NCBI GenBank assembly: GCA_044356215.1 | Contig: JBIKWQ010000092.1 | Location: 1 to 10,992 of the forward strand | DNA length: 10,992 nt | Direction of reading: 5' to 3' | Source: Bdellovibrionota bacterium | GTDB taxonomy: Bacteria; Bdellovibrionota_C; UBA2361; OMII01 | In this document: positions 1 through 10,744 of the stretch, piece by piece | Numbering within the stretch: position 1 is the stretch's first letter | Layout of the letters: every line of letters begins with the position of its first letter | Program-made: the position numbers and the translations under genes | Notes under the pieces: model-generated | Seen by the model: the letters and a program-made list of their open reading frames with translations, nothing else | Database searches by the model: none | Told to the model about the DNA's origin: nothing

Positions 1-12
1 AGTTAAGGAGGA

Positions 13-139
13 CCAAAATGGTGCAGCTGGTTAAAAGCACAAGAGATTTTGAAATTTTCGGCGCGCAACCCTGGCACCGTCAGGGTGAGCACCGAAAATT
101 CAAAAGCCGCAGTGATTTTAGCCAGATGCGCCGTTTTGG
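13..139. repeat. Long imperfect nested palindrome (RPE/MITE-like element or structured RNA)
   Basis: 13-40 pairs with 112-139 (23 Watson-Crick, 3 G-U, 2 mismatches). TTTTGAAATTTTCGG (47-61) pairs with CCGAAAATTCAAAA (92-105) with one bulge. ACCCTG (68-73) pairs with CAGGGT (81-86) around a 7-nt loop. Confidence 0.8.
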
Positions 140-186
140 GACCCGCAACTGCCGTTTTTAGGTTTATACAGAGTGGAGAATGTTAT

Positions 187-1650
187 ATGGCAAGCGAAAC
201 TAACGAACTAACTTTTGTGAGGTGTCCTACCTGCCGTAGCTTGGTTCCTGCCAGTGCCTCTAGGTGTCGGATCTGTAACGCGACTCTTGAGGCAGGAGCT
301 AAACCAGCGGCTTCTGAGCCACCTGCGCCGCAGGGGCGTGCTAGGCAGAAAACTGTGTCAGCGGCGGCCGAAGAGGTTCGCGGAATTGTCGGCGCTGCAG
401 CGCCGATTGAGCCACCCGTAAAGCCGGTGTCGGTCGCTCCGGTGGCACCTGCAGAGAGCGGCAGGCCAGCTGATGTGAATGATTCAACTGAGGATGACAC
501 TTTTGATCCCCTAGGCGCGTTTCTGCAAGATCTCGACGCTGAAGAGGATAAGCCAACGCCAAGCGCGCCACCGACTCCTCAAAAAACAGAATCTCCGTTA
601 GCCGATCTCTTTGATGACAGCGACGATGATGATGACGATGACGATTTTGATCTGGATATCTTTAATGATCCAGTTTTTGAGGAGTTGTTGTCAGATAAAG
701 CCTCTAAGCAGAGCGCAGGACCGTCTGATTCGGAGGTATCTGAGACTTCGGATCTTGTGGACGATCTATTAGATCCTTTGGATGATATTGAGGAGCCTGA
801 GCCGCAGGTTGAGGTGAAACCAGAGCCGCCACCAGTGGTTCAACGTGAGCCGCGGAGGCCAGAATCGCGGAGACAGGAGCCTAGTAGGGGTGAGGGTGCG
901 CCTCAGAGGCCTAGTGAATTTGTTAATCGTGAGGAGCCGAGGTCCGCGAAGCCGGTCGAGAGACAACCAGCACCCCGTCCAAAGGTCGATTCTCCACCAT
1001 CTCCAGTTTCTCCTCGTCCAAGGATCGGAGGGGTGGGGCCACGACAGGAAGTTAACCCCAGAGTGAGCTCGGATTCGTCCTCAAAAGATCAAGCTAGCGC
1101 ACGGCCTCAGAGGCCAACGCAGCCAGAGACACGCGGAGCTGCGCGTCGAGAGGAACCGAGGCGGCCAGAAGGTAGGCCGCTGATTCATCCAGCGCGAACG
1201 GCTGCGGGATCGAATCGCGCGAATCTCGAGGACGAGCGTGAGAGAGTTCAGCCGAGCGAACCGGCACGAGAGGAGAGATCTCCGGTCGCTCCAAGTGGCC
1301 CACGTACCAACAAGATGAAACCAGGACGGTTGTTTGGTTGGTTGGTTAGTTACGAGAATCCGGATGGCCGCGCGATAGAGTTGCGAGTTGGAAGGTTCTT
1401 TATCACAGGGAACAGTATCCGAGGTAGTGATCTGATCCTTGAGGACCAGAGTATATCGACACCACACGCATTGGTGGCGATCACTGAGAATGGATTCCAA
1501 CTTCAGGATCTGATGAGTGAGCGGGGTACATTCGTGCGTCAGCAGGGCGAGGCTCAGTATTCACGTGAGGATGGAGTGATGGAGATTCGTCACGGAGATT
1601 GGATCAGGTTTGGCGATGTGGAGTTCCTGGTAACGATAGTGCCGTCTTAA
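187..1650 (+). CDS. Zinc-ribbon + long low-complexity linker + C-terminal FHA-fold protein (487 aa)
   Basis: ATG at 187 follows GGAGA (175-179) and is preferred over the TTG at 49. N-terminal CPTC-x10-CRIC zinc ribbon, then an Asp/Glu-rich and a Pro/Arg/Glu-rich linker. C-terminal FHA-like motifs: DLILEDQSISTPHA, LQDLMSERGTFV, GDWIRFG. Confidence 0.88.
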   Translation: MASETNELTFVRCPTCRSLVPASASRCRICNATLEAGAKPAASEPPAPQGRARQKTVSAAAEEVRGIVGAAAPIEPPVKPVSVAPVAPAESGRPADVNDSTEDDTFDPLGAFLQDLDAEEDKPTPSAPPTPQKTESPLADLFDDSDDDDDDDDFDLDIFNDPVFEELLSDKASKQSAGPSDSEVSETSDLVDDLLDPLDDIEEPEPQVEVKPEPPPVVQREPRRPESRRQEPSRGEGAPQRPSEFVNREEPRSAKPVERQPAPRPKVDSPPSPVSPRPRIGGVGPRQEVNPRVSSDSSSKDQASARPQRPTQPETRGAARREEPRRPEGRPLIHPARTAAGSNRANLEDERERVQPSEPAREERSPVAPSGPRTNKMKPGRLFGWLVSYENPDGRAIELRVGRFFITGNSIRGSDLILEDQSISTPHALVAITENGFQLQDLMSERGTFVRQQGEAQYSREDGVMEIRHGDWIRFGDVEFLVTIVPS

Positions 1651-1679
1651 GGTTATTTAGATATGGTTAAGGCATAGAG

Positions 1680-2537
1680 ATGAGATCATTGCGGGCGTTC
1701 ATAGCGTGTTGCTGCGCATCACTTTTAGTTGGCGGCTGTAGCTCCTCTCCGGTAGCGGATGATGTCTCTCAGCGTGAGGCTAATGAGATAGTTTCGGCGC
1801 TGGACAGGCATAGGATCGCGGCGTGGCTGGTGAAGGGGCGTGGTTCAAAAGGGCGCTACTCAGTTGAGGTGTCGTCGAGTGATTTCGCTGGGGCAGCGGG
1901 TGTACTGAGCTCTCTGGATCTTCCAGCCGAGAAGAAGCCATCGTTTCAGGAGCTCACCGGGGGAGGTGGAATTATCCCTCCAAGCCGCGAGGTAGAGGCG
2001 CTACGTTTAGATCGCGCCACAGCCCAGGAGCTAGAGGACCTCTTTAAATCAAGAAGTGATATAGCCTCTGTAAATGTGATCGTTAGGGCGCACTCGCGGA
2101 CGCGTGATGAGAAACCAACAGCTACTGTGGTTGCTCGCCGGTCTACTAAGGCTGTTCCGGATCTCAGCGAGCTAAGGGAGATAGTTAGGCGCGCGGTTCC
2201 GGGGATTCAAATAGAGGATGTTTTTATATCGGTATCTGAGCCCTTGCCGGATGAGCTTTCCGCGGGAACGCGTACATCCGGCTTGGTTTCCTTCCTCGGA
2301 TTTTGGAGGGTTCCGGAGGAATCGCACGGCGGATTGGTAGGTTTATTCGCTGGGCTGATCGCTTTGACAGGGGTGATCGCGGGGTTAGCGGGCTACCTGC
2401 TCGGTCAATTTAATTGGCTTAATAAATTAAGTGCTCCCAGCTTCAGTAAAGCTAGTCGCGTCGGGTCAATGAGTAGCGGTGGTGGTAGAGCTAGCGAAAC
2501 ATCTGAGGATGGCTCTGAGAGTGGGGACCTGGTATGA
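1680..2537 (+). CDS. sctJ: T3SS inner-membrane ring lipoprotein, YscJ/PrgK/HrcJ family
   Basis: Lipoprotein signal ending LLVGG-C20. YscJ-like motifs SQREANEIVSAL, LDLP, FQELTGGGGIIPPSREVEALRLDRATAQELE and PTATVV. C-terminal TM helix GLVGLFAGLIALTGVIAGLAGYLL. At 285 aa it fits SctJ rather than FliF. Confidence 0.88.
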   Translation: MRSLRAFIACCCASLLVGGCSSSPVADDVSQREANEIVSALDRHRIAAWLVKGRGSKGRYSVEVSSSDFAGAAGVLSSLDLPAEKKPSFQELTGGGGIIPPSREVEALRLDRATAQELEDLFKSRSDIASVNVIVRAHSRTRDEKPTATVVARRSTKAVPDLSELREIVRRAVPGIQIEDVFISVSEPLPDELSAGTRTSGLVSFLGFWRVPEESHGGLVGLFAGLIALTGVIAGLAGYLLGQFNWLNKLSAPSFSKASRVGSMSSGGGRASETSEDGSESGDLV

Positions 2538-2758
2538 GAGGAGCTAACGCTTTTATGCGTCTTCAGCCTTACGATCGCGCGCGTGTGGCGATCGCTGTGT
2601 TGCTTGATGGAGGCGAGGCGCCCATATACTTACTCAATGACGCGGAAATTGGAAAGGAGCTTAGAGAAGCCGCCGAGGAGCTGTTGTCAATGGAGTTAGA
2701 TATAAGGTTCCCGTTTGTGGGAACTATGTTGCGCTTGGCTCTAGAGGAGGCTGGCTGA
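2534..2758 (+). CDS. Small helical hypothetical protein in the SctK position (weak FliG N-terminal resemblance)
   Basis: ATGA overlap with the sctJ stop, implying translational coupling. 74 aa with amphipathic helical composition. Confidence 0.7.
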   Translation: MRGANAFMRLQPYDRARVAIAVLLDGGEAPIYLLNDAEIGKELREAAEELLSMELDIRFPFVGTMLRLALEEAG

Positions 2759-2759
2759 T

Positions 2760-3092
2760 GTGGTTGGTGATAATGAGTTAGAGTTAAAGCTTTATAGAGA
2801 TAAAGTAGTCCAGGAATTAAAGCGAAGAACTGAGGCGTTAATGGGGCTAGAGGGGCGATTGATAGACGCGCAGTTTGAATTGGATAGAGCGACGCGAGCG
2901 AGTCGAACTATCAGTGGGACAACAGCGCGAATCCAGATTGAGAACGCCCACCGGGTTAAATTGAGGTCCGCTCTGAGAGTTTTGGAAAGTGAGAGAGATG
3001 AGGCGAAGGCAGACCTGGAGCGCGCCGAACAGAGATTGCGAGAGGTTGATCAAAGACTTGATGAGCTTTTGAAAGAGGGCCAAGAGGTTTAA
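2760..3092 (+). CDS. Coiled-coil protein, putative SctO/FliJ-like stalk
   Basis: GTG start 1 nt after the previous stop, with GAGGAGG upstream. E/R/L-rich heptad pattern throughout, and it lies directly before sctQ. The SctO assignment is positional only. Confidence 0.6.
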   Translation: MVGDNELELKLYRDKVVQELKRRTEALMGLEGRLIDAQFELDRATRASRTISGTTARIQIENAHRVKLRSALRVLESERDEAKADLERAEQRLREVDQRLDELLKEGQEV

Positions 3093-3109
3093 GTGAGACG
3101 GGGTAATAA

Positions 3110-4150
3110 GTGAGTAGCGGAGAGCAGATATCAGCGGAATCAGAGGGGCAAGTTGAGCCTTGGGAGCCGCGTGGCTTTTTAAGGGCGATCGATTATCGCG
3201 AGGCGCGCCTGGCTAATGGATTCCTGCGTTGTCATCCGGAACGTTGGTTCCCGGGATTCGCTGAGCGCTGGGCGCCATTGGTCTCGACCCTTGGATGTGA
3301 GCTTAGGATGGGGGAGATAAAACCCACCATAGTTATTCCTGATGATTGCTGGATCTGTTTTCGTGGAACCTTAGAGAATGAGGCGGTCGTGGTGGCGATT
3401 GATCGACAGACCGCAGAGCTTGTAATCCAGGAAGTAGTTCCAAATATAAGCGGCGGGCTCCAGACAGACCTGGTGATTGAGTACCTGATCCAGCGCTTTA
3501 TGGCGATCTTGGGTATGACTCAAACCGCATCCGAGACCGCTGGGGCATTTATATTTAATGGCCGATGCTCCCCTAGCGAGGTCTCTTTAATGGCAGCGGT
3601 GAAGTTGTCGTTCTCCTTAAATTCCGCACCGTGCTCGGTTGTGGTCGCCTTAGGACAAGAGGCGGTCGAACGTATGGATAGGCTGTGGCGCAGGCAGGTT
3701 CACTCATCTATTCGCATAGCGCAGGAAGCCGGATTACTTAGGTTTGAGATAGCGCAATTGGGTGTGCCGCCACAGCTTCTCTCAGAATACGTCACCAAAG
3801 GCACAATAGTAGATTTAGAGGTTGCCGCGTCTGACACTCTTACGCTGAGGGTCGGCTCGAAATTATTTATGCCGGCTCGAATGATTCAGATAGATGGCAA
3901 ATTGGGGTGTCAGGTCGTGTCGGGATCGGCCACGAATCTCCCTGTGGCAGAGGGGACATCACGGCTTAGTGTCGAGATCGCGTCGATGTCAGTGGAGCCA
4001 AGTGTGCTCGCGGAGCTCGGACAGGTAGGAGCGGTGCTCAACACGGGTCGACAGCTAGATAATCGAGTCACGCTGAATATTAACCAGGAAAAGGTCGCGG
4101 ACGCCCGACTCTGCGTCTATCAGGGGCGGTATGCCATAGAGGTAGGCTAG
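3110..4150 (+). CDS. sctQ: Sorting-platform/C-ring protein, SctQ (YscQ/SpaO; FliM/FliN-related)
   Basis: Two tandem C-terminal SPOA-like repeats: LRFEIAQLGV...KGTIVDL...LTLRVG...ARMIQIDGKLGCQV and LSVEIASMSV...GAVLNT...VTLNIN...ARLCVYQGRYAIEV. Located immediately before sctR. Confidence 0.8.
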   Translation: MSSGEQISAESEGQVEPWEPRGFLRAIDYREARLANGFLRCHPERWFPGFAERWAPLVSTLGCELRMGEIKPTIVIPDDCWICFRGTLENEAVVVAIDRQTAELVIQEVVPNISGGLQTDLVIEYLIQRFMAILGMTQTASETAGAFIFNGRCSPSEVSLMAAVKLSFSLNSAPCSVVVALGQEAVERMDRLWRRQVHSSIRIAQEAGLLRFEIAQLGVPPQLLSEYVTKGTIVDLEVAASDTLTLRVGSKLFMPARMIQIDGKLGCQVVSGSATNLPVAEGTSRLSVEIASMSVEPSVLAELGQVGAVLNTGRQLDNRVTLNINQEKVADARLCVYQGRYAIEVG

Positions 4151-4196
4151 CAAAAATCCTCTGTCCAGAACGGCATCCCGTGGTTAATATGCCGAC

Positions 4197-4802
4197 ATGG
4201 ATGGATCGTTATCAATAGTCTCGGTGATCCTGGGGCTTTTACTCTTTACGACTTTTGTCAAAACAGCGACGGTTTTGTCGATAGCTCGCTATGGCTTGGG
4301 TTTGGTCGGTTTTGAGTTTGGAGCTGTATGTTTTTTTGTAGCTCTCGGTATGGCGTGGTTAGCGGTGCCGCCAGAGTTAGCCAGTCTGGGGTTTCCAGAT
4401 GCTCTATTTTCTAAGACTCAATCGATTCAGCCGCAGGTTATAACTCAGTCGTTGGTTCCATATATGGAAAGGCGGATAGATCCGGAGATCGCGGCGCATT
4501 TTAAAGGGTCAACCAAAGATGGTGTGGCTAATGATCAAGGTGTCAAAGTCCACGAGAAAGACAGTCCAATAAGCTCAGTAGCTCCAGCGTATCTGCTCTC
4601 TCAATTGAAAGAGGCTTTTCAGTTGGGGTGCATGATACTAATACCGTTAGTAACTGTAGATCTTCTGGTTGCTCACGTGCTCGCATTGATCGGCACTCAG
4701 AATATCGCGGCAGCGGCGGTGGCTTTGCCGCTAAAGATACTGCTCTTTATAGCCGCGGGAGGCTGGGGTCTTCTGGGGAAAAAATTGCTCGGCTTGGAAT
4801 AG
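4197..4802 (+). CDS. sctR: Export gate protein SctR/FliP family, divergent
   Basis: TTFVKTATVLSIARYGLG resembles TSFxKxxxVxSxLRxALG. PAYLLSQLKEAFQLG...DLLVAHVL...LPLKILLFIAAGGW resembles PAFxxSELxxAFxIG...DLVxxxxL...LPFKLLLFVxxDGW. It lacks the N-terminal signal-peptide extension typical of FliP. Confidence 0.9.
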   Translation: MDGSLSIVSVILGLLLFTTFVKTATVLSIARYGLGLVGFEFGAVCFFVALGMAWLAVPPELASLGFPDALFSKTQSIQPQVITQSLVPYMERRIDPEIAAHFKGSTKDGVANDQGVKVHEKDSPISSVAPAYLLSQLKEAFQLGCMILIPLVTVDLLVAHVLALIGTQNIAAAAVALPLKILLFIAAGGWGLLGKKLLGLE

Positions 4803-4818
4803 TATAGTATAGGGGACC

Positions 4819-5067
4819 ATGATGCGCGAAGAGCAGTTGTATGATCTTATTCAACAAGCGTGGCGCGTGGTGTTTACGCTTGTTATTCCCACATTAGCGA
4901 TACCGCTGGTGAGTTTTATTTTCTCTTTTGTTTTTGGCTTAATCGGTGTCAGAGATGAAGGGGTGGGGTACGCGTTACGTGTCCTTGCTCTTATAGCGGT
5001 TGCCTTGCTCTGCGCTCCGATTTTCGCCAGTGGATTGACTGGCCTTATGTCAGATGCTTTGAGGTAA
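4819..5067 (+). CDS. sctS: Export gate protein SctS/FliQ family, divergent
   Basis: 82 aa with two hydrophobic segments. QQAWRVVFTLVIP resembles YscS QALWLVLVLSMP, and RDEGVGYALR aligns with QEQTLGFxxK. Follows sctR, with AGGGG upstream of the start. Confidence 0.8.
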   Translation: MMREEQLYDLIQQAWRVVFTLVIPTLAIPLVSFIFSFVFGLIGVRDEGVGYALRVLALIAVALLCAPIFASGLTGLMSDALR

Positions 5068-5080
5068 AAGGCATACTATT

Positions 5081-5656
5081 ATGTGGCTGCTTTTGTGCGC
5101 TATCGCCTTTGGTGGCCCGTTGATGGTGGTCGGAGCCTCCGTCCTGCTACTCATTCCTGCTGGTTTCATGTCGCCTAGTTCGGCTCAAGCCGTCTCTGCG
5201 GTCACTTTTTGTCTCGTCAGTGTAATGATTACAGCGGCGGCTGGAACGAGTGCGGTATTTCGCTGGTGCTTTGATCGTGCTCCAGCTCGAGGGGGATCTC
5301 TCTTATCTGGATTAGTAATGGCGCTGTTTTTTTTGAGTCATGAGATTACCCTTCGCTTTATTGGCCAACTTTTTACCGGGGGTGTTCTCGCGATAAGCGC
5401 AGGAGGTTTGCTTTTTGAGCTCCTAGCAGAGTTAGGTACTTTGGTCGGGTTGGCGGTAGCGATCTCCTGTCTTGTGTTGTTGCTATTAGAATTGCCACTA
5501 AGGTGGTGTGAAGCTGGGTCAAAGTTGATTCCGGATGGTTGTTTTAGGACGCTTCGGTGGGTTGGTATAGTTATTTTTATGTTTTTAACAGCGTCTGTCC
5601 TGCGTAATGAGGGCGCTGTAAGGCTAGCGCACGCTTTTCGCGGTGCGTTGAATTAA
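5081..5656 (+). CDS. Polytopic membrane protein, putative shortened SctT/FliR
   Basis: About 5-6 hydrophobic segments, in the slot after sctRS. The C-terminal LVGLAVAISCLVLLLLELPL...FRTLRWVGIV loosely follows the FliR C-terminal pattern. The call is mainly positional. Confidence 0.6.
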   Translation: MWLLLCAIAFGGPLMVVGASVLLLIPAGFMSPSSAQAVSAVTFCLVSVMITAAAGTSAVFRWCFDRAPARGGSLLSGLVMALFFLSHEITLRFIGQLFTGGVLAISAGGLLFELLAELGTLVGLAVAISCLVLLLLELPLRWCEAGSKLIPDGCFRTLRWVGIVIFMFLTASVLRNEGAVRLAHAFRGALN

Positions 5657-5671
5657 AAAGGGGAATCTATT

Positions 5672-6256
5672 GTGGATCGCCTGACTGAAAAACAAGACAA
5701 CCTCAGAGACCTTCCGCCTACGGCCTTTTTTCCGCTCTCTGGACTGGCAACACGACTATTTGTCGTGGCGGCAATTAGTGGGGTGCTCTTTTTTATGGGC
5801 GAGAGAGCTTTAGAAAAGCTGCTTAAGCCATTTGACTCGTGGGCAAGGCTCACTGAGTCCCCTTTGGAGTCGGTTGGCGCGACACTTATTCTGTTGGCTA
5901 TCCTTGCCGTGGCGGCTTTAGTTGTTGGTGTTGTGAGCTCAGTGGCTCAGATGGGTTCGGCCTCATTTAGCGTGAGGCTCCGCTTATCAAAGGAGTTAAA
6001 TCATAGACGATTACCCCTGATGGTTGTGCTAACGACGTTGGTTTCTGGCTTTTTGGCTGTACTCGCGGTCCGATATACTTGCGGAGATCTACTGGAGATT
6101 CTCCATGTCCAAAGAAGTGACCTAGGGCCGGGCCTATTAAAGCGGCTTTTAACTCACATGAGTAAACTGGTGGTTGTCGCTTCGTCCGTTTTAGCTATAC
6201 TGGTTGTGTTTGGTTATCGTTTCGGCCTTTTGATTAAACCACAGAGTCGGGGCTAG
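5672..6256 (+). CDS. Membrane protein, putative SctU/FlhB transmembrane domain only
   Basis: GTG start with AAGGGG upstream. Four hydrophobic segments and N-terminal LTEK. LVVGVVSSVAQMG...LSKELN resembles the FlhB xxQxGxxF...SKLNP segment. The ORF ends shortly after TM4. Confidence 0.6.
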   Translation: MDRLTEKQDNLRDLPPTAFFPLSGLATRLFVVAAISGVLFFMGERALEKLLKPFDSWARLTESPLESVGATLILLAILAVAALVVGVVSSVAQMGSASFSVRLRLSKELNHRRLPLMVVLTTLVSGFLAVLAVRYTCGDLLEILHVQRSDLGPGLLKRLLTHMSKLVVVASSVLAILVVFGYRFGLLIKPQSRG

Positions 6257-6335
6257 AGTCAGACTATTTTTCAGATGGGCGAGATCTGGCCACGGTGTGA
6301 GTATTTACCGAACGAGATCTACAGGGTGTATTTTT

Positions 6336-6581
6336 ATGTCAGCATCTCCTGATCCATTCTCACTTTCGCCTCTTTTGGCGGTTCTTCCTAGGCTTGGGAA
6401 TGTATCGAGACTAGAGACGTTAGTATCTTCTCTCTTCGCCCGCTTTGAATCGCTCGACGCTCTGCGCGAAAATGTTGATGGAGCTGAGGCAAGAGCGCGC
6501 TTGGCCCATGAGGCGGCGATGCTAAGGCAGATTCTCGACTGGCTATCTGTTAATCCCGATGAGGAGAGCCACAATGAGTAA
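6336..6581 (+). CDS. Small helical hypothetical protein (81 aa; alternative GTG start at 6297)
   Basis: Co-oriented with the cluster and overlaps the TPR gene start by 8 nt. Amphipathic C-terminal helix LAHEAAMLRQILDWL. Confidence 0.65.
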   Translation: MSASPDPFSLSPLLAVLPRLGNVSRLETLVSSLFARFESLDALRENVDGAEARARLAHEAAMLRQILDWLSVNPDEESHNE

Positions 6582-7008
6582 CGAATCTTCAGCGGTAGAG
6601 TCACACAGATCAAACTACTCAAAAGAGGAGCAGCTGGATATCTACGCGTTAGCGAGGATGTGTCTTGAGTCAGGTCAGGTCAAGCGAGCGCAGGTAATTC
6701 TGCGTGGGCTTACAACAGTCGCCCCTGAGTTTGTTCCAGGTTGGCTGGCTACCGCTGTGACGCAAGCTACTCTAGGGAATATAGAGCAATCTTTAGATGC
6801 GGCTAGACAGGCGCTAAAACTGCAGCCTGATTCACCGATAGCTATGATAATTCTGGTAACAACCTCTCTAACGCTAGGTGACCAGAGCACTGCTGGTACA
6901 TATCTGGGCGAGTTAAATGAGATGATCGAGCAGGGAATGGTTAGTGATCCGAATCTTATTAGGCTCTTTAAGATGCAGATGGTTCGGTATAATTCGCCGA
7001 ACTCGTAA
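6574..7008 (+). CDS. TPR chaperone, SycD/LcrH/CesD-like (or YscY-like)
   Basis: ATG at 6574 follows GAGGAG (6561-6566). EEQLDIYALARMCLESGQVKRAQVILRGL resembles SycD LEQLYSLAFNQYQSGKYEDAHKVFQAL, followed by further TPR motifs (WLATA...LGNIEQSLDAARQALKLQPDSP). Confidence 0.78.
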   Translation: MSNESSAVESHRSNYSKEEQLDIYALARMCLESGQVKRAQVILRGLTTVAPEFVPGWLATAVTQATLGNIEQSLDAARQALKLQPDSPIAMIILVTTSLTLGDQSTAGTYLGELNEMIEQGMVSDPNLIRLFKMQMVRYNSPNS

Positions 7009-10000
7009 GAAAGGAGCGAAAAGAGGAGAGCAGCGAATCGTTGTCTTTAAGCAGATCGCTTGGACTCCCGAAATCAATCAGGCGCCCATTCTTTAGGCCA
7101 AGGATCAGATCGGCGTCCATCACAGTTGGCAATCTGTGGGCCACTATGAGAACTGTGGCGCCACGAAGTTCATTCCGCAGAACGTTTTGAATCTGATAGT
7201 CAGCCTCGGAGTCTATTGACGCGGTAGCCTCATCAAGAATTATCACTTTGCTCTTTCTCAGAAGAGCGCGCGCAAGAGAGATTAATTGACGTTGGCCAGC
7301 GCTAAAATTAGCACCGCCTTCACGGACATCCGTGTTTAGTTGATCTGGGAGAGACACTACCAGTTTTTTTAGACCAACCCGTTCCAGGGCATCCCAGATC
7401 TCCTGGTCTGAGCAAGCCTTAAAGGGATCGAGGCTCTCGCGAAGCTGTCCTGAAAATAAGATCGGTTCTTGCGGAACAACGGATAAGGCGCCGCGCAATT
7501 CGGACAGCGCGAGTGTTGAGAGGTCGATTCCATCGATCTCGATAGAACCAGAGGATGGTTCAACAAGGCGCAGCAAGCTCAATATAAGTGTACTCTTACC
7601 CGAGCCGGTACGACCGATTATTCCGACGCGACTGCCAGGGGGGATCACGCATGAGATTCTGTCAAGGGCCAAGGGTAGCTCTGGCTTATAGCGAGCGCTA
7701 AAATTCTCTAAGGTTATCGATCCGCGTGATGGCCAGCCAGAAGGGGGAGTGTTTCCGTGCGGCGATTCCGAAGGTGTATGCGCGTAGCGCTCAATCCGCT
7801 CATAAGAGGTTAAATTATTCTCGACCATCGATATACTGCGGATAGCCCAGACCATCGTGGATGTCATCATAATAGCGTAGGCCAGAGCCAGACCCGATAG
7901 AGCCACACCGGATGAAATTCCTAGATTAAGAGAGACACTTAACCCGATTCCTAAGATTATCGCGACCCCAACCGACTCAAGGCGAAGACCGAGCCACCTG
8001 TTAGTTGCAGTTTGTGTGTAGGTTATTCGGTTGTGGGCGTCTAAGGCTTTGGTGTATCTCGCGGTAAATATGTCGGCTAGCTTCGATGCTCTAAGTGCCT
8101 CTACACCGGCGAGGCACTCCGAGAGTATCGCGAAGATAGGGGATAGCGAGAGTGCGCTAAGACGCTGTAAATCCCTTGAGGCGGGCCTGAAGAATCGCGC
8201 CGCCAGATAATAGATGGCGGCGGCCGGACCGATAATCATAAACACCGCCGGAGCGACAAAGGTGACTATTAGGCATACAGTGAGTGTTTCTATCAGGCAG
8301 TGACCAGTATCAATAAGCGCCCGTGGAAGAGCGAGCTCGACGTTCTCAAGATCGCGACTAAACCTGTTTAGTACGCGGCCCACCGGATGAGACTCAAAGA
8401 AGTTAAGTGGCGCGTGAAGAATCCCATGAAGTAAGTCTTTGTGAGCCGATATCCCCGCTTTCATTCCAGCGCTAAAGACGCTCATCGTGCGAAGGTATCC
8501 AATAACTCCCAATAGAGTCACACATCCCAAATATCCGGAGAGGAATGTAGTCAGATCAACTTGCTTAACCCCTGACCAACTAGTCAGCCAGAGATCGGTG
8601 GCAAGCGCCGCACCTTGGCGACCTACAAAGAGTAGCGCTATACCGAACAAAGCGAAGCCGGGGGCCAATTTACGGAAATAAGATGTGACAGTGGCGTTGG
8701 ATACGGCGCCCGTCCGTCGCTCCTCAGTCTGAATGAGTGGTTCAGGTGACGCGGGAAACTCATCATCTCTGTCTACCTCCTCTTCCTGGGAGATCTGAAA
8801 ATTAGCTGACCTATGTTCGCTTGTTGTGAAAGAAGCCTCGTCACTTATTTTTTGGTGGAAGTGAAGGAGCTGTTTGAAGCGGTCGGAATGAGCTATCAGA
8901 TGCCGTGGTTCTCCCTGTTCAATAATCTCACCGTTATCAATTACTAAAACTCGATCCGCTTCCATGGCGAATTCGAGTCTGTGACTAACAACAATCCTGG
9001 TCTTATCTCGTAGCTCACCGCGGATAAGATTATTGAATACGTGTCGGGCAACTTGAGGATCGAGAGCGCTTAAGGGATCGTCTAGTAAATAGATCTCGGC
9101 GTTTTGGTAGACAGCTCGCGCTAGGGCCACGCGGTGGCGCTGGCCACCCGATAGGTTTATTCCGCGTTCACCAATTCGTGTCGCGTCACCGGCTGGTAGG
9201 TTTTGCAAATCAGGACGTAATCCCGACGCAAAGAGCGCCCGTTGATAACGTGAATTATCAAAATCTCCCCCAAAAGTTATATTATCACGAACTGAATCAC
9301 TTATAATCCAGGGGTGCTGAGGTACATAGGACACGGGACCTCCGAGAGACACGCTCCCCGAGTCGCTCGGTAGTTCTCCAAGGATACTTAAGAGTAACGC
9401 AGTCTTTCCGGATCCAACTGATCCTACTACTACGACTAATTCGCCACGAGAGATTGAGATGCCATCTTTTACGCGAGTAGCCTTCGCACCGCCCGAGGAC
9501 CATGTAGTCTTGAGATCTTGTATTATGATCGCCTCAGCCTGCTCTTTAATAACCTTAGTTGGAACGAATTCAGACGAGGTGAGAAAGGTATGAATTCGCT
9601 TCGCCGCTACGCTCGCTTCGACCACGCTGTGGACCGTCTCAGGGAGCATGTTCAGCGAGAAGCGTAGTTGCATAAATAGGGTTAAGACAGGGAAGAGTGT
9701 GGCGGCTTCTAAGGTCGCACCAGACCTTACTAATAAGATCGAAGTGGTAGCCATCGCCGCGGCTGGCGCTATGCCAGATGAGATGGCGAATAACGCCGAT
9801 AATCTGGCTAATTTAGCCGCTATCGCCGCTTCCTCTTTACGTAGGGAGTTAATCTTATTTTCTAGGTTGGCTTCCCATCCCTGGGATTTGGCGGCCTTTA
9901 TGTGAAGAAGAGTCTCTCTTGTAAGCCCAACTCTGCTGTCCGCGATGCGAGAGAGCCTAGAGCGCAGTCTTCCCTGCTCGCGCGCGATAAGAATCGAGAA

Positions 10001-10744
10001 GGATAGAAGTAGAGCTAATGTGCATCCTCCAGCTAGAGCGGGAGTACCAACGAGTCTGTATAGCAAAAAGATTATCGCTATAAGTGTTAGTGGGTGATAC
10101 CAGATGGAGTTTAAGAAGACGAATAAGTTTTGAATTTTTAAGGAATCAGTCGCCACCAAATTTACGATTAGTCCGGCGGACATTCGGTGCTGCTCTGATC
10201 TTTGCTGTCTAAGTGCTTTTTGAAAGATGAGGGCGTTAAGGGCAGCACGTAACCTAATAGCCATATTAGGCTGAAAGAAAAATAAGTAGTGTGAGCCAAA
10301 GATACCGATGAGCGATGAAGTGGCGAGTGTTATGGCGCATAGGATCGGATACGGAATATTCAACGCTGAATGTATCGCCGCGAATGGATCCCTTTCGATC
10401 CACTCTGGCGAAGAGGATCTATCGCTGAGGGCTTTTAGTAGCTCCCTTAATATGAGCGGGTTAGCTAACGCGACAGCTAAACAAACGAAGGAAAAGGCCA
10501 TGACAATCGCTATCGTTCCGATATAGCAGGAAGCCGCGGCGGCAAATAAAGAGAGGTAGCCGAAAGATTTAAATTGAGCCGCGGCGAGACCTAATCTTTC
10601 AGAGTCACCGGTAACTTCCATATGCTTCGGCAGCTTAGGAAGGTCTGACGGATTAAGTGGGGCTTTGTTAGCACTTCGTATGACCGGAGTGGCCCAGCTA
10701 AAGAGCAGCTTAGATAATAGAGATGGAGAGGACCTGGGCTGCAT
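6968..10744 (-). CDS. Full-length ABC exporter, ABCC/MRP subfamily (TMD-NBD-TMD-NBD, 1258 aa)
   Basis: N-terminal lasso-like SLLSKLLFSWATPVI...PLNPSDL. NBD1: GSVGSGKT, IGERGINLSGGQ, IYLLDDPLSALD. Linker EERRTGAV. TMD2: FFESHPVGRVLNRFSRD. NBD2: GRTGSGKS, VPQEPILFSG, NFSAGQRQL, IILDEATASID. Confidence 0.95.
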   Translation of the reverse strand: MQPRSSPSLLSKLLFSWATPVIRSANKAPLNPSDLPKLPKHMEVTGDSERLGLAAAQFKSFGYLSLFAAAASCYIGTIAIVMAFSFVCLAVALANPLILRELLKALSDRSSSPEWIERDPFAAIHSALNIPYPILCAITLATSSLIGIFGSHYLFFFQPNMAIRLRAALNALIFQKALRQQRSEQHRMSAGLIVNLVATDSLKIQNLFVFLNSIWYHPLTLIAIIFLLYRLVGTPALAGGCTLALLLSFSILIAREQGRLRSRLSRIADSRVGLTRETLLHIKAAKSQGWEANLENKINSLRKEEAAIAAKLARLSALFAISSGIAPAAAMATTSILLVRSGATLEAATLFPVLTLFMQLRFSLNMLPETVHSVVEASVAAKRIHTFLTSSEFVPTKVIKEQAEAIIIQDLKTTWSSGGAKATRVKDGISISRGELVVVVGSVGSGKTALLLSILGELPSDSGSVSLGGPVSYVPQHPWIISDSVRDNITFGGDFDNSRYQRALFASGLRPDLQNLPAGDATRIGERGINLSGGQRHRVALARAVYQNAEIYLLDDPLSALDPQVARHVFNNLIRGELRDKTRIVVSHRLEFAMEADRVLVIDNGEIIEQGEPRHLIAHSDRFKQLLHFHQKISDEASFTTSEHRSANFQISQEEEVDRDDEFPASPEPLIQTEERRTGAVSNATVTSYFRKLAPGFALFGIALLFVGRQGAALATDLWLTSWSGVKQVDLTTFLSGYLGCVTLLGVIGYLRTMSVFSAGMKAGISAHKDLLHGILHAPLNFFESHPVGRVLNRFSRDLENVELALPRALIDTGHCLIETLTVCLIVTFVAPAVFMIIGPAAAIYYLAARFFRPASRDLQRLSALSLSPIFAILSECLAGVEALRASKLADIFTARYTKALDAHNRITYTQTATNRWLGLRLESVGVAIILGIGLSVSLNLGISSGVALSGLALAYAIMMTSTMVWAIRSISMVENNLTSYERIERYAHTPSESPHGNTPPSGWPSRGSITLENFSARYKPELPLALDRISCVIPPGSRVGIIGRTGSGKSTLILSLLRLVEPSSGSIEIDGIDLSTLALSELRGALSVVPQEPILFSGQLRESLDPFKACSDQEIWDALERVGLKKLVVSLPDQLNTDVREGGANFSAGQRQLISLARALLRKSKVIILDEATASIDSEADYQIQNVLRNELRGATVLIVAHRLPTVMDADLILGLKNGRLIDFGSPSDLLKDNDSLLSSFRSFLTSSANYTEPSAS

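Follow-up and report, generated by a model that had tools for sequence, protein, structure and literature searches.

The stretch of DNA analysed here (the window, 10,992 bases) is an entire contig, JBIKWQ010000092.1, of a Bdellovibrionota genome assembly (GCA_044356215.1; 3.24 Mb in 131 contigs, estimated to be 96% complete). It carries eleven co-oriented open reading frames (ORFs), which we interpret, with a probability of about 0.6, as the greater part of a structural operon for a needle-less and secretin-less gate of type III secretion system (T3SS) origin that works with a Tad pilus, in analogy to the Kil and T3SS* pair of Myxococcus xanthus. According to the available text of PMC12075869, that organism kills prey on contact by means of the Tad-like pilus Kil, and lysis requires the needle-less T3SS*; the two are found at the same sites, T3SS* being recruited by Kil, and their assembly into one complex has been proposed. 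Sequence and synteny establish what the system in the window is structurally; that it takes part in contact-dependent attack, exports proteins and is physically fused with the Tad machine is what we infer. Full-text literature searches (Bdellovibrionota with type III secretion; an SctV/Tad/CpaF operon) returned no description of such a system. Below, G000 denotes the genome of the window and other G numbers those of relatives, while C numbers denote contigs of G000, the window being C111.

The cluster was singled out in an earlier note, made from the letters of the window, which described eleven co-oriented genes with tight gaps, closed downstream by a convergent gene. The ORF listing bears this out, with all eleven genes packed into positions 187-7008 of the + strand and separated by gaps or overlaps of -23 to +46 nt (at most +79 nt, if the gene termed y starts at an internal Met at 6336). 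The x74 gene overlaps the stop of sctJ by 4 nt, the TPR gene overlaps the y gene by 23 nt, and the start of the FHA gene at 187 matches that in close relatives. Families were assigned by Pfam and NCBIfam, all NCBIfam scores being under the equivalog cut-offs, and the naming of the FHA, SctJ, SctQ, SctR, SctS, SctU (N-terminal part) and TPR genes in the earlier note is backed by family or ortholog matches. The genes of the cluster are:

187..1650, + strand: soluble FHA protein, 487 aa (Pfam FHA, DZR-type ribbon; both ends kept in orthologs)
1680..2537, + strand: SctJ-like inner-membrane ring lipoprotein, 285 aa (PF01514, TIGR02544)
2534..2758, + strand: x74, conserved 74-aa protein of a family without a name (orthologs in relatives' loci)
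2760..3092, + strand: coiled-coil helical hairpin, 110 aa, at the SctO/FliJ position (position only)
3110..4150, + strand: SctQ-like cytoplasmic protein, 346 aa (PF01052, TIGR02551)
4197..4802, + strand: SctR/FliP export-gate subunit, 201 aa (PF00813, yscR)
4819..5067, + strand: SctS/FliQ-like subunit with two transmembrane segments, 82 aa (weak in the window, ortholog match)
5081..5656, + strand: polytopic membrane protein, 191 aa, at the SctT position (position only; 5-6 hydrophobic segments)
5672..6256, + strand: N-terminal membrane domain only of SctU/FlhB, 194 aa (ortholog match, PDB profile)
6336..6581 (ORF opens at 6297), + strand: y, conserved protein of about 81 aa (alignment A4)
6559..7008, + strand: TPR protein, 149 aa, of the T3SS class-II/SctY chaperone type (SctY and LcrH/SycD matches)

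SctV, SctN, SctL, SctC and SctF are missing from the window, as the earlier note stated, and the window is a whole contig. The description of the cluster as minimal and devoid of SctV had to be abandoned, as SctV is encoded in a Tad operon on C131 and a multi-FHA gene lies upstream, off the contig. G000 possesses three FliP, three FHIPEP and three YscJ/FliF homologs, which fall into three sets: a flagellar set (C29, C71 and C123) that appears complete, a second set on C70 and C99, and the third comprising the window and C131. The third SctV (701 aa) is encoded directly after tadC, in an operon for a PP2C, an FHA protein, a Ser/Thr kinase, a TadZ-like ATPase, Flp, RcpC, CpaF, TadB, TadC, SctV, a 776-aa protein and a thioredoxin-like protein. 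This operon contains the core set of a Tad/Flp system (CpaF/TadA ATPase, TadB, TadC, Flp pilin, RcpC/CpaB and a TadZ/CpaE-like ATPase). We assign the C131 SctV to the system of the window because of the Tad synteny described below and because three gates are matched by three SctVs.

The position of sctV is constant among the relatives. It stands immediately after CpaF-TadB-TadC in G000, as it does in all 18 same-order relatives that were fetched, and it lies between tadC and a kinase-like HEAT gene in 19/19 genomes of the order and in 4/4 reachable genomes of other orders. This HEAT gene codes for the 776-aa protein mentioned above (L009:7866-10196 in C131), which has a weakly Ser/Thr kinase-like N-terminus, a transmembrane segment and C-terminal HEAT repeats, and which in merged clusters always has sctV on one side and the multi-FHA gene on the other. 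In most families of the window's order the T3SS-like and Tad operons occupy separate loci. In G036, the Tad operon continues on the same strand into the genes for the 2xFHA protein, FHA, J, x74, Q, R, S, U, y and TPR. All five fetched genomes from other orders (G065, G071, G078, G083 and G084, from four families) have one contiguous co-oriented cluster made up of SctV and the kinase-like HEAT gene together with 2xFHA, FHA and J/Q/R. The Tad genes directly precede SctV in the four of these whose DNA reaches that far (the contig of G083 ends within SctV), and in G065 and G071 the complete series is visible, with the kinase and TadZ at one end and y at the other. Merged Tad and T3SS-like clusters were thus found in six genomes from five families in total. 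Among the best 80 named SctV loci in a collection of 185,579 species, just three share the Tad synteny: one is unclassified, and two carry the label Bdellovibrionota or Bdellovibrionales. At the remaining 77 loci (Myxococcota, Chlamydiales, Proteobacteria, Acidobacteriota, PVC and others), SctV has no Tad genes next to it. An E-value threshold was also tried as a means of separating C131-type SctVs from their paralogs; it did not discriminate outside the order, and synteny was used instead.

The components of the system are widely retained. A full-length SctQ free of stops occurs in 60 of 61 sampled genomes from the order (45/45 of high quality; 24/24 genera), at 24-67% identity, and even the closest relatives are just 65-67% identical. 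The SctQ profile matches 115 of 124 genomes of the phylum (71/73 of high quality), 110 of them at E <1e-34; the genomes without a match are for the most part incomplete, with one family (f28) in addition. A C131-type SctV is present in 61/61 genomes of the order. In the loci of 29 relatives collected for ortholog comparison, the order 2xFHA, FHA, J, x74, coiled coil, Q, R, S, T-position gene, U (N-terminal part), y, TPR is kept across families, with SctR downstream of SctQ in 22 of the 29 within the fetched DNA. The combination of a conserved intact SctQ and a conserved gene order rules out neutral decay, a possibility raised in the earlier note as one that orthologs could reveal. Three species of one genus (G029, G030 and G032; 91-99% complete) depart from this pattern: only flagellar and C99-type FliP were found in them, and the window-type sctR-S-T-U seems to have been lost, with J and Q, y and TPR, the FHA genes and the SctV linked to Tad still in place. 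In G030 and G032, for which the cluster DNA was fetched, SctQ abuts y-TPR. Two metatranscriptome assemblies, from lake water and a river, contain short contigs at least 99% identical to the window, which span the FHA-J, J-x74, Q-R and y-TPR junctions, none lying on the ABCC gene downstream; these contigs hint that the operon is transcribed, although they come from RNA libraries in which DNA carry-over is possible. Parts of the window that no such contig covers are not read as silent.

We analyzed the relationships of SctV in a tree of 65 sequences (IQ-TREE quick search, LG+C20), selected from 113 extracted ones and comprising 15 of the window lineage, 8 of C70 type, 6 flagellar and 36 external ones; external fragments of <560 aa and near-duplicates with >=62% identity had been removed. 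The flagellar sequences come from the window's phylum only, which limits any statement on ancestry. The window lineage, the C70-type proteins and FlhA each form a group with support 100. All 36 external non-flagellar SctVs, including those of Myxococcota and Chlamydiales, group together at SH-aLRT 93 with the window lineage outside, and the branching order among FlhA, the window lineage and the external clade shows no resolution. In a subset of 30 sequences (LG+G4), a split with support 97 separates the window lineage, the C70-type proteins and the phylum's FlhA from 16 external non-flagellar SctVs. When the window lineage and the Myxococcota-like group are constrained to one clade in these 30 sequences, the log-likelihood drops by 19.5 units, a loss that the approximately unbiased (AU) test does not find significant (p-AU 0.072). 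The SctV of the window system thus appears nested in no sampled described family, while a sister relation to the 'Myxo' group of non-flagellar T3SSs remains compatible with the data. The earlier note had named a pair of findings that together would speak against its proposal: that the missing genes lie elsewhere, which is indeed the case for SctV, and that the proteins nest within a described family, which is not what the sampled families indicate. Its suggestion of a possibly undescribed family gains from the position of SctV outside the 36 sampled non-flagellar proteins and from scores below all equivalog cut-offs. Its claim of an injectisome rather than flagellar ancestry finds no firm support, as the non-flagellar models score only slightly ahead of the flagellar ones and the backbone of the SctV tree is without resolution.

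The operon extends upstream of the window. The last ~138 bases of C78 are identical to the first bases of the window except for one mismatch, and a multi-FHA gene stands at the very end of C78, i.e. just upstream of the window; this overlap of contig ends, together with the gene order of the relatives, indicates that the operon continues from C78 into the window. The assembly break is explained by a multi-copy palindromic MITE-like repeat of ~180 bp with 16-bp inverted ends, which sits between the multi-FHA and FHA genes (window 1-175) and occurs in at least 30 copies in G000, many of them at contig ends. A 47-aa ORF at 18-161 with a strong Shine-Dalgarno site was considered as a gene of the system and rejected: it lies within the repeat and is missing from close relatives.

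In the relatives, a protein of ~450 aa with 2-3 stretches matching FHA or Yop-YscD_cpl precedes the FHA gene. This multi-FHA protein is tail-anchored, with a transmembrane helix at the extreme C-terminus in 23 of 24 orthologs and 0-2 residues beyond it. By its predicted architecture it resembles the cytoplasmic half of SctD; it lacks a periplasmic ring-building domain, and so we do not count it as SctD. The 487-aa FHA protein of the window has its FHA domain at the C-terminus (PF00498 4e-8, Yop-YscD_cpl 2e-7, residues 394-481), preceded by an N-terminal DZR-type zinc ribbon (11-36) and a long acidic and Pro-rich disordered linker, and contains no transmembrane segment. SctJ matches PF01514 with 29 bits, over the cut-off, and TIGR02544 at 5.5e-19, under the cut-off; it ends in a C-terminal transmembrane helix and a 43-aa cytoplasmic tail. 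Among 29 orthologs, a pattern search found a lipobox-like Cys in 26, and 28 have the C-terminal transmembrane helix, with tails of 25-51 aa. In SctQ, PF01052 matches at 5e-13 over two stretches (C-terminal SPOA/FliN-type) and TIGR02551 at 5e-6, while the N-domain is Trp-rich and family-specific; in the Atlas this protein belongs to a Bdellovibrionota cluster of its own, the next nearest clusters being SepQ and Myxococcota YscQ-like. The x74 protein has no match in Pfam or NCBIfam, and its orthologs, at 39-57% identity, are present in 28 of the 29 relatives' loci.

SctR provides the strongest match of the window (PF00813 9.5e-28), with yscR (89 bits) ahead of fliP (76 bits), and is the third and most divergent of the three FliP paralogs of G000. 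SctS is weak in the window itself (EscS 0.0013, Bac_export_3 0.018), and its ortholog in G048 matches Bac_export_3 at 3e-11. Likewise, SctU reaches an E-value of 0.046 in the window and 1e-18 in the G048 ortholog, across positions 3-219 of the 335 in the FlhB/YscU model; a profile of 13 SctU-like orthologs (A2) searched against PDB identified FlhB (3.6e-12) and SpaS (6e-6), in the membrane domain only. Of 14 SctU orthologs (192-242 aa, but for a 62-aa fragment truncated where its locus ends), none has an NPTH/NPEH motif or a C-domain, and G000 contains no spare gene for a SctU C-domain besides the 88-aa one of the C99 system. To judge from these sequences, the autocleaving switch domain of SctU has been lost in the window system.

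The labels SctT and SctO, given in parentheses in the earlier note, turned out to be positional only, as every sequence and fold test failed. For the 191-aa ORF, hhalign against G000's own SctT and FliR yielded E 0.6-0.7, a profile search of PDB found no match, Pfam Bac_export_1 matched 0/13 orthologs even at E<=10, and Foldseek, at E<=0.001, found nothing similar to the AF2 model (pLDDT 72). The 110-aa helical hairpin (alignment A3, 19 sequences, with invariant E19 and R23) gave no specific match in PDB, an E-value of 0.11 in hhalign against the FliJ of G000 and no support in hhalign against a 131-aa ORF of C70.

The two last genes of the cluster are predicted to encode binding partners. The protein y, whose likely start is the conserved internal Met at 6336 rather than the opening of the ORF at 6297, combines an extended PDxFSLSPLLxLLP segment with a helical hairpin, and alignment A4 reveals P25, P31, R49, E72, M75, L76 and W82 as invariant. 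Neither a PDB profile search nor Foldseek (AF2 model, pLDDT 72) found a relative other than generic helical hairpins, and the candidates SctF, SctI and SctX were dropped when these searches returned nothing specific. The TPR protein matches the NCBIfam models SctY (2.9e-8) and LcrH/SycD (1.4e-7), both below cut-off, and its profile finds generic TPR structures only in PDB. The modelled complex of y and the TPR protein scores 0.86, compared to 0.01 for the best control, with at least 84% agreement of contacts between runs and partner pLDDT of at least 75; of 157 solved complexes, 116 attained this 0.86 mark, as did 2 of 215 mismatched pairs. The model places the proline-rich segment and both helices of y in the groove of the TPR protein, which supports a predicted chaperone-ligand pair.

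Several components expected in a T3SS were sought in the whole genome. G000 encodes just two secretins (PF00263), a GspD in a type II secretion system locus and one of AMIN/PilQ type; the PF00263 search found no T3SS secretin genome-wide, and there is no RcpA/CpaC secretin in the C131 Tad operon or the merged clusters. The best hit to the needle protein SctF (PF09392) across G000 has E 0.7. The view of the earlier note, that the cluster encodes a divergent T3SS-derived inner-membrane machine lacking needle and secretin, agrees with these results and with the family matches. Relative to the core set in the definition of non-flagellar T3SSs by Abby and Rocha (2012), J, Q, R, S and the N-terminal half of U are located in the window and V in the Tad operon, while T is unrecognisable and N is encoded in neither operon. 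SctN, SctL and SctK were found in none of the window, the Tad operon and the merged clusters, where the only ATPase is CpaF.

G000 has two FliI/SctN ATPases and two FliH/SctL proteins, one pair flagellar and the other an orphan pair on C9, so that there is one non-flagellar pair for two non-flagellar systems. The ATPase is lacking from the cluster, as the earlier note had it, and present in the genome, in a pair that could not be assigned to the window system. The orphan pair (L024:8378-11702; SctN of 444 aa, FliH/SctL of 196 aa) is divergent from an FlgE-like hook gene and lies away from all three gate clusters, a neighbourhood also seen in G044. In G047 it shares a strand with the C70-type cluster at a distance of ~8.5 kb, and in G053 it stands alone. 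G053 is without a flagellar FlhA/FliI set and keeps the orphan-type ATPase and both non-flagellar gates; G055 keeps both non-flagellar SctVs and FliP paralogs, and no flagellar FlhA was found there. Neither the locations nor the presence of the pair in G053 and its absence from G055 allowed us to assign it to one of the non-flagellar systems.

The second non-flagellar T3SS-like system of G000 consists of J, Q, V and TPR on C70 (L010:9012-14623) and R, S, T and a split U on C99 (L011:4414-11560). This SctU is divided near the autocleavage site into an N part of 260 aa and a C part of 88 aa, separated by a gene for a 1042-aa PAS/GAF histidine kinase, and the arrangement is kept in G001 and G048. 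A second, more divergent Tad-like locus with CpaF, TadB and TadC is found on C79 (L088:8410-11351), adjoining response-regulator and histidine-kinase genes. Within the window, the cluster is followed by one further gene:

6968-10744, - strand: ABCC/MRP-type transporter, 1258 aa, convergent with the cluster and overlapping the end of the TPR gene by 41 nt

This is a full-length, two-half transporter (TIGR00957, 813 bits, below cut-off) with an architecture typical of eukaryotes, and the same gene adjoins the cluster in G006 also.

Based on these data we propose a tentative working model. The parts of the machine identified by sequence are an SctJ ring, an SctQ platform, an SctR/SctS gate, a membrane-only SctU and the 191-aa protein at the place of SctT, complemented by the TPR chaperone with its small partner and two FHA proteins, one of them tail-anchored; together with the Tad module, these parts would build one envelope complex or two closely cooperating ones. 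Assembly would be triggered by a contact or envelope signal that is relayed by the kinase, phosphatase and FHA proteins. The T3SS-like gate would pass unfolded substrates over the inner membrane, the candidates being y with its chaperone and hydrolytic effectors. The energy for export would probably come from the proton-motive force by way of SctV, whether or not the orphan SctN/SctL pair takes part, and the Tad pilus could serve as a route to, or a contact with, the target cell.

A number of observations weigh against a gate working with the Tad pilus. SctU lacks its switch domain, and SctT is unrecognised in every sequence and fold test, which leaves a complete R5S4T1-type gate putative. No secretin is encoded with either the T3SS-like or the Tad module, and neither operon contains SctK or SctL. 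A third FliI/SctN ATPase was found in none of the 61 genomes of the order (two in 53, one in 7, none in 1), and G055, which is 97% complete and has both non-flagellar systems, has no FliI/SctN above cut-off at all. In the lineage of G029, G030 and G032, the gate genes of the operon are dispensable or have been replaced by the other system. Adjacency of genes reflects co-inheritance and probably co-regulation, not shared structure, and predation, export and physical coupling are putative in these uncultured organisms.

The same synteny might be read more boldly, such that the Tad module and the T3SS-derived gate form a single hard-wired composite nanomachine, ancestral to the whole phylum-level lineage and bridged by SctV. 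Its gate would operate without a T3SS ATPase, switch domain, needle or secretin, and y and lytic effectors would be loaded onto or through the Tad pilus. We hold this extension tentatively, at odds somewhat below even; if it were true, the T3SS superfamily would have in this system a third deep branch, next to those of flagella and injectisomes, and the Kil-T3SS* supercomplex hypothesised for Myxococcus would have a direct genomic proof. Conversely, the link to Tad might amount to shared regulation or history, with the gate being an autonomous needle-less exporter across the inner membrane, to the periplasm or the surface. Such an exporter would fit the separate location of the two operons in most families of the window's order and the view that Abby and Rocha take of secretin-less Myxo systems (in the available text of PMC3459982), and it appears unlikely to us in the face of an obligatory gate subunit, SctV, lying between tadC and the HEAT gene in every genome examined, of uninterrupted co-oriented clusters in six genomes from five families, and of the dependence of T3SS* localisation on Kil in Myxococcus, as described in the available text of PMC12075869. 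A further step down in probability we place a T3SS core that is not secretory at all and has no substrates of its own, being instead a platform that scaffolds or energises the Tad pilus (with SctV conducting ions) or contributes to nanotube-like structures. A dedicated ATPase, SctL, SctK, a needle and the SctU switch domain are all missing, some species have lost RSTU and retained J, Q and V, and the abstract of PMC9380563 refers to reports linking T3SS family members with membrane nanotubes; against this stand the chaperone-type TPR protein with a predicted tightly bound small partner, typical of export substrates, and the retention of the channel-forming SctR, SctS and N-terminal SctU in most genomes.

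The genes of the window and those of C70/C99 might also constitute one single second T3SS, sharing one SctN/SctL pair. It is true that there is just one non-flagellar ATPase/SctL pair for both sets and that species without the window-type RSTU still have a C99-type RSTU, but the sets comprise separate J, Q, R, S, U and V paralogs, their SctV clades are distinct and fully supported, and they are never adjacent in the loci examined, which makes this proposal improbable. Finally, the low scores against all curated models and the lack of several canonical genes might suggest that an injectisome or a second flagellum is decaying here and that what is left of it persists by chance; with full-length SctQ orthologs in 60/61 genomes of the order, no frameshifts or stops in those matches, a gene order kept across orders and invariant residues in the small proteins, we consider this hardly credible. 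A T3SS-derived gate cooperating with the Tad pilus remains our preferred reading. The pairing of a Tad-like pilus with a needle-less T3SS occurs here in a different phylum-level lineage, beyond the Cystobacterineae, and is fixed in gene order. Having sctV as a gene of the Tad operon turns the idea of one complex into a testable hypothesis at the level of subunits, candidate contacts being those of SctV with TadB/TadC and of the tail-anchored FHA protein with SctQ. As a natural minimal T3SS core, with no ATPase, no SctU switch and no recognisable SctT, the system may be useful for asking what a type III gate requires, and its deep branch bears on the origin of non-flagellar T3SSs.

Among known systems, canonical injectisomes (Ysc, Inv-Mxi-Spa) share with the window system an SctJ lipoprotein with a C-terminal transmembrane helix, an SPOA SctQ, homologs of SctR, SctS, SctU and SctV, and a class-II/SctY-like TPR chaperone with a small partner. 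Unlike them, the operons of the window system encode no SctC, SctF, SctI, SctD periplasmic ring, SctK, SctL, SctN, SctP, SctW or translocators, SctU is truncated, and all scores lie below the equivalog cut-offs. The flagellar export apparatus (FliPQR-FlhBA, FliF, FliMN) likewise has a homologous gate and SPOA proteins, and the cytoplasmic tail of SctJ, at 25-51 aa, recalls the C-terminus of FliF; in contrast to the flagellum, no FliG, FliE, rod, hook or Mot genes are found among the window ORFs or in the C131 operon. With respect to control, threonine phosphorylation in the type VI secretion system (T6SS) of Pseudomonas aeruginosa employs PpkA, PppA and Fha1. The association of a Ser/Thr kinase, a PP2C and FHA proteins with a contact-dependent envelope machine resembles the FHA control of that T6SS as described in the available text of PMC8460266, although the machine is a different one and phosphorylation in the window system is putative. 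The same text notes that FHA proteins are abundant in Kil clusters and likens this to the Pseudomonas T6SS, where contact sets off a phosphorylation cascade involving FHA.

The 'Myxo' group, a set of secretin-less systems that Abby and Rocha (2012; PMC3459982, available text) place at the base of the non-flagellar T3SSs, is similar to the window system in being a T3SS derivative without secretin and SctF. It comprises predatory former 'Deltaproteobacteria' and is read there as a translocation device, not a relic, which may just translocate proteins or form a periplasmic structure; Bdellovibrio has 0 occurrences in the available text of that paper. The window family differs from it in lying outside the 36 sampled non-flagellar SctVs, in having a smaller gene set, and in not encoding a complete sorting platform including SctN with the system, as the 'Myxo' criterion has it.

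The closest counterpart is the T3SS* of M. xanthus (mxan_2434-2464), which, in the available texts of PMC12075869, PMC8460266 and PMC10849154, has a T3SS-type inner-membrane and cytoplasmic core and no secretin, needle or translocon, a Kil-like Tad partner, many FHA proteins and TPR chaperones, all features that it shares with the window system. At its SctV locus, Archangium gephyra has genes for TPR proteins and for a 2xFHA protein of 373 aa with a hydrophobic anchor at its end, which shares its architecture with the tail-anchored FHA protein upstream of the window. There are also clear differences. In the window lineage SctV belongs to the Tad operon, whereas Kil and T3SS* form separate clusters in the available text of the Myxococcus papers; the window system lacks SctN/SctL in its cluster, the C-domain of SctU and a recognisable SctT, no Tad secretin was found for it, and its Tad operon includes a Ser/Thr kinase and a PP2C. 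The host lineage is a different one at the level of phyla (Bdellovibrionota in NCBI records and the Atlas), with an SctV that in the tree is not nested in Myxococcota, a sister position being compatible with the AU test, while two reviews (PMC12428579 and PMC10849154, in their available text) restrict the co-occurrence of Kil and T3SS* to Cystobacterineae. The analogy to the needle-less T3SS of Myxococcus, drawn in the earlier note, is strengthened by the genetic link to a Tad/Kil-like operon. We therefore regard the system as a new, deeply divergent variant of the pairing of a needle-less T3SS with a Tad pilus, which may work like the Myxococcus pair and may be distantly related to it.

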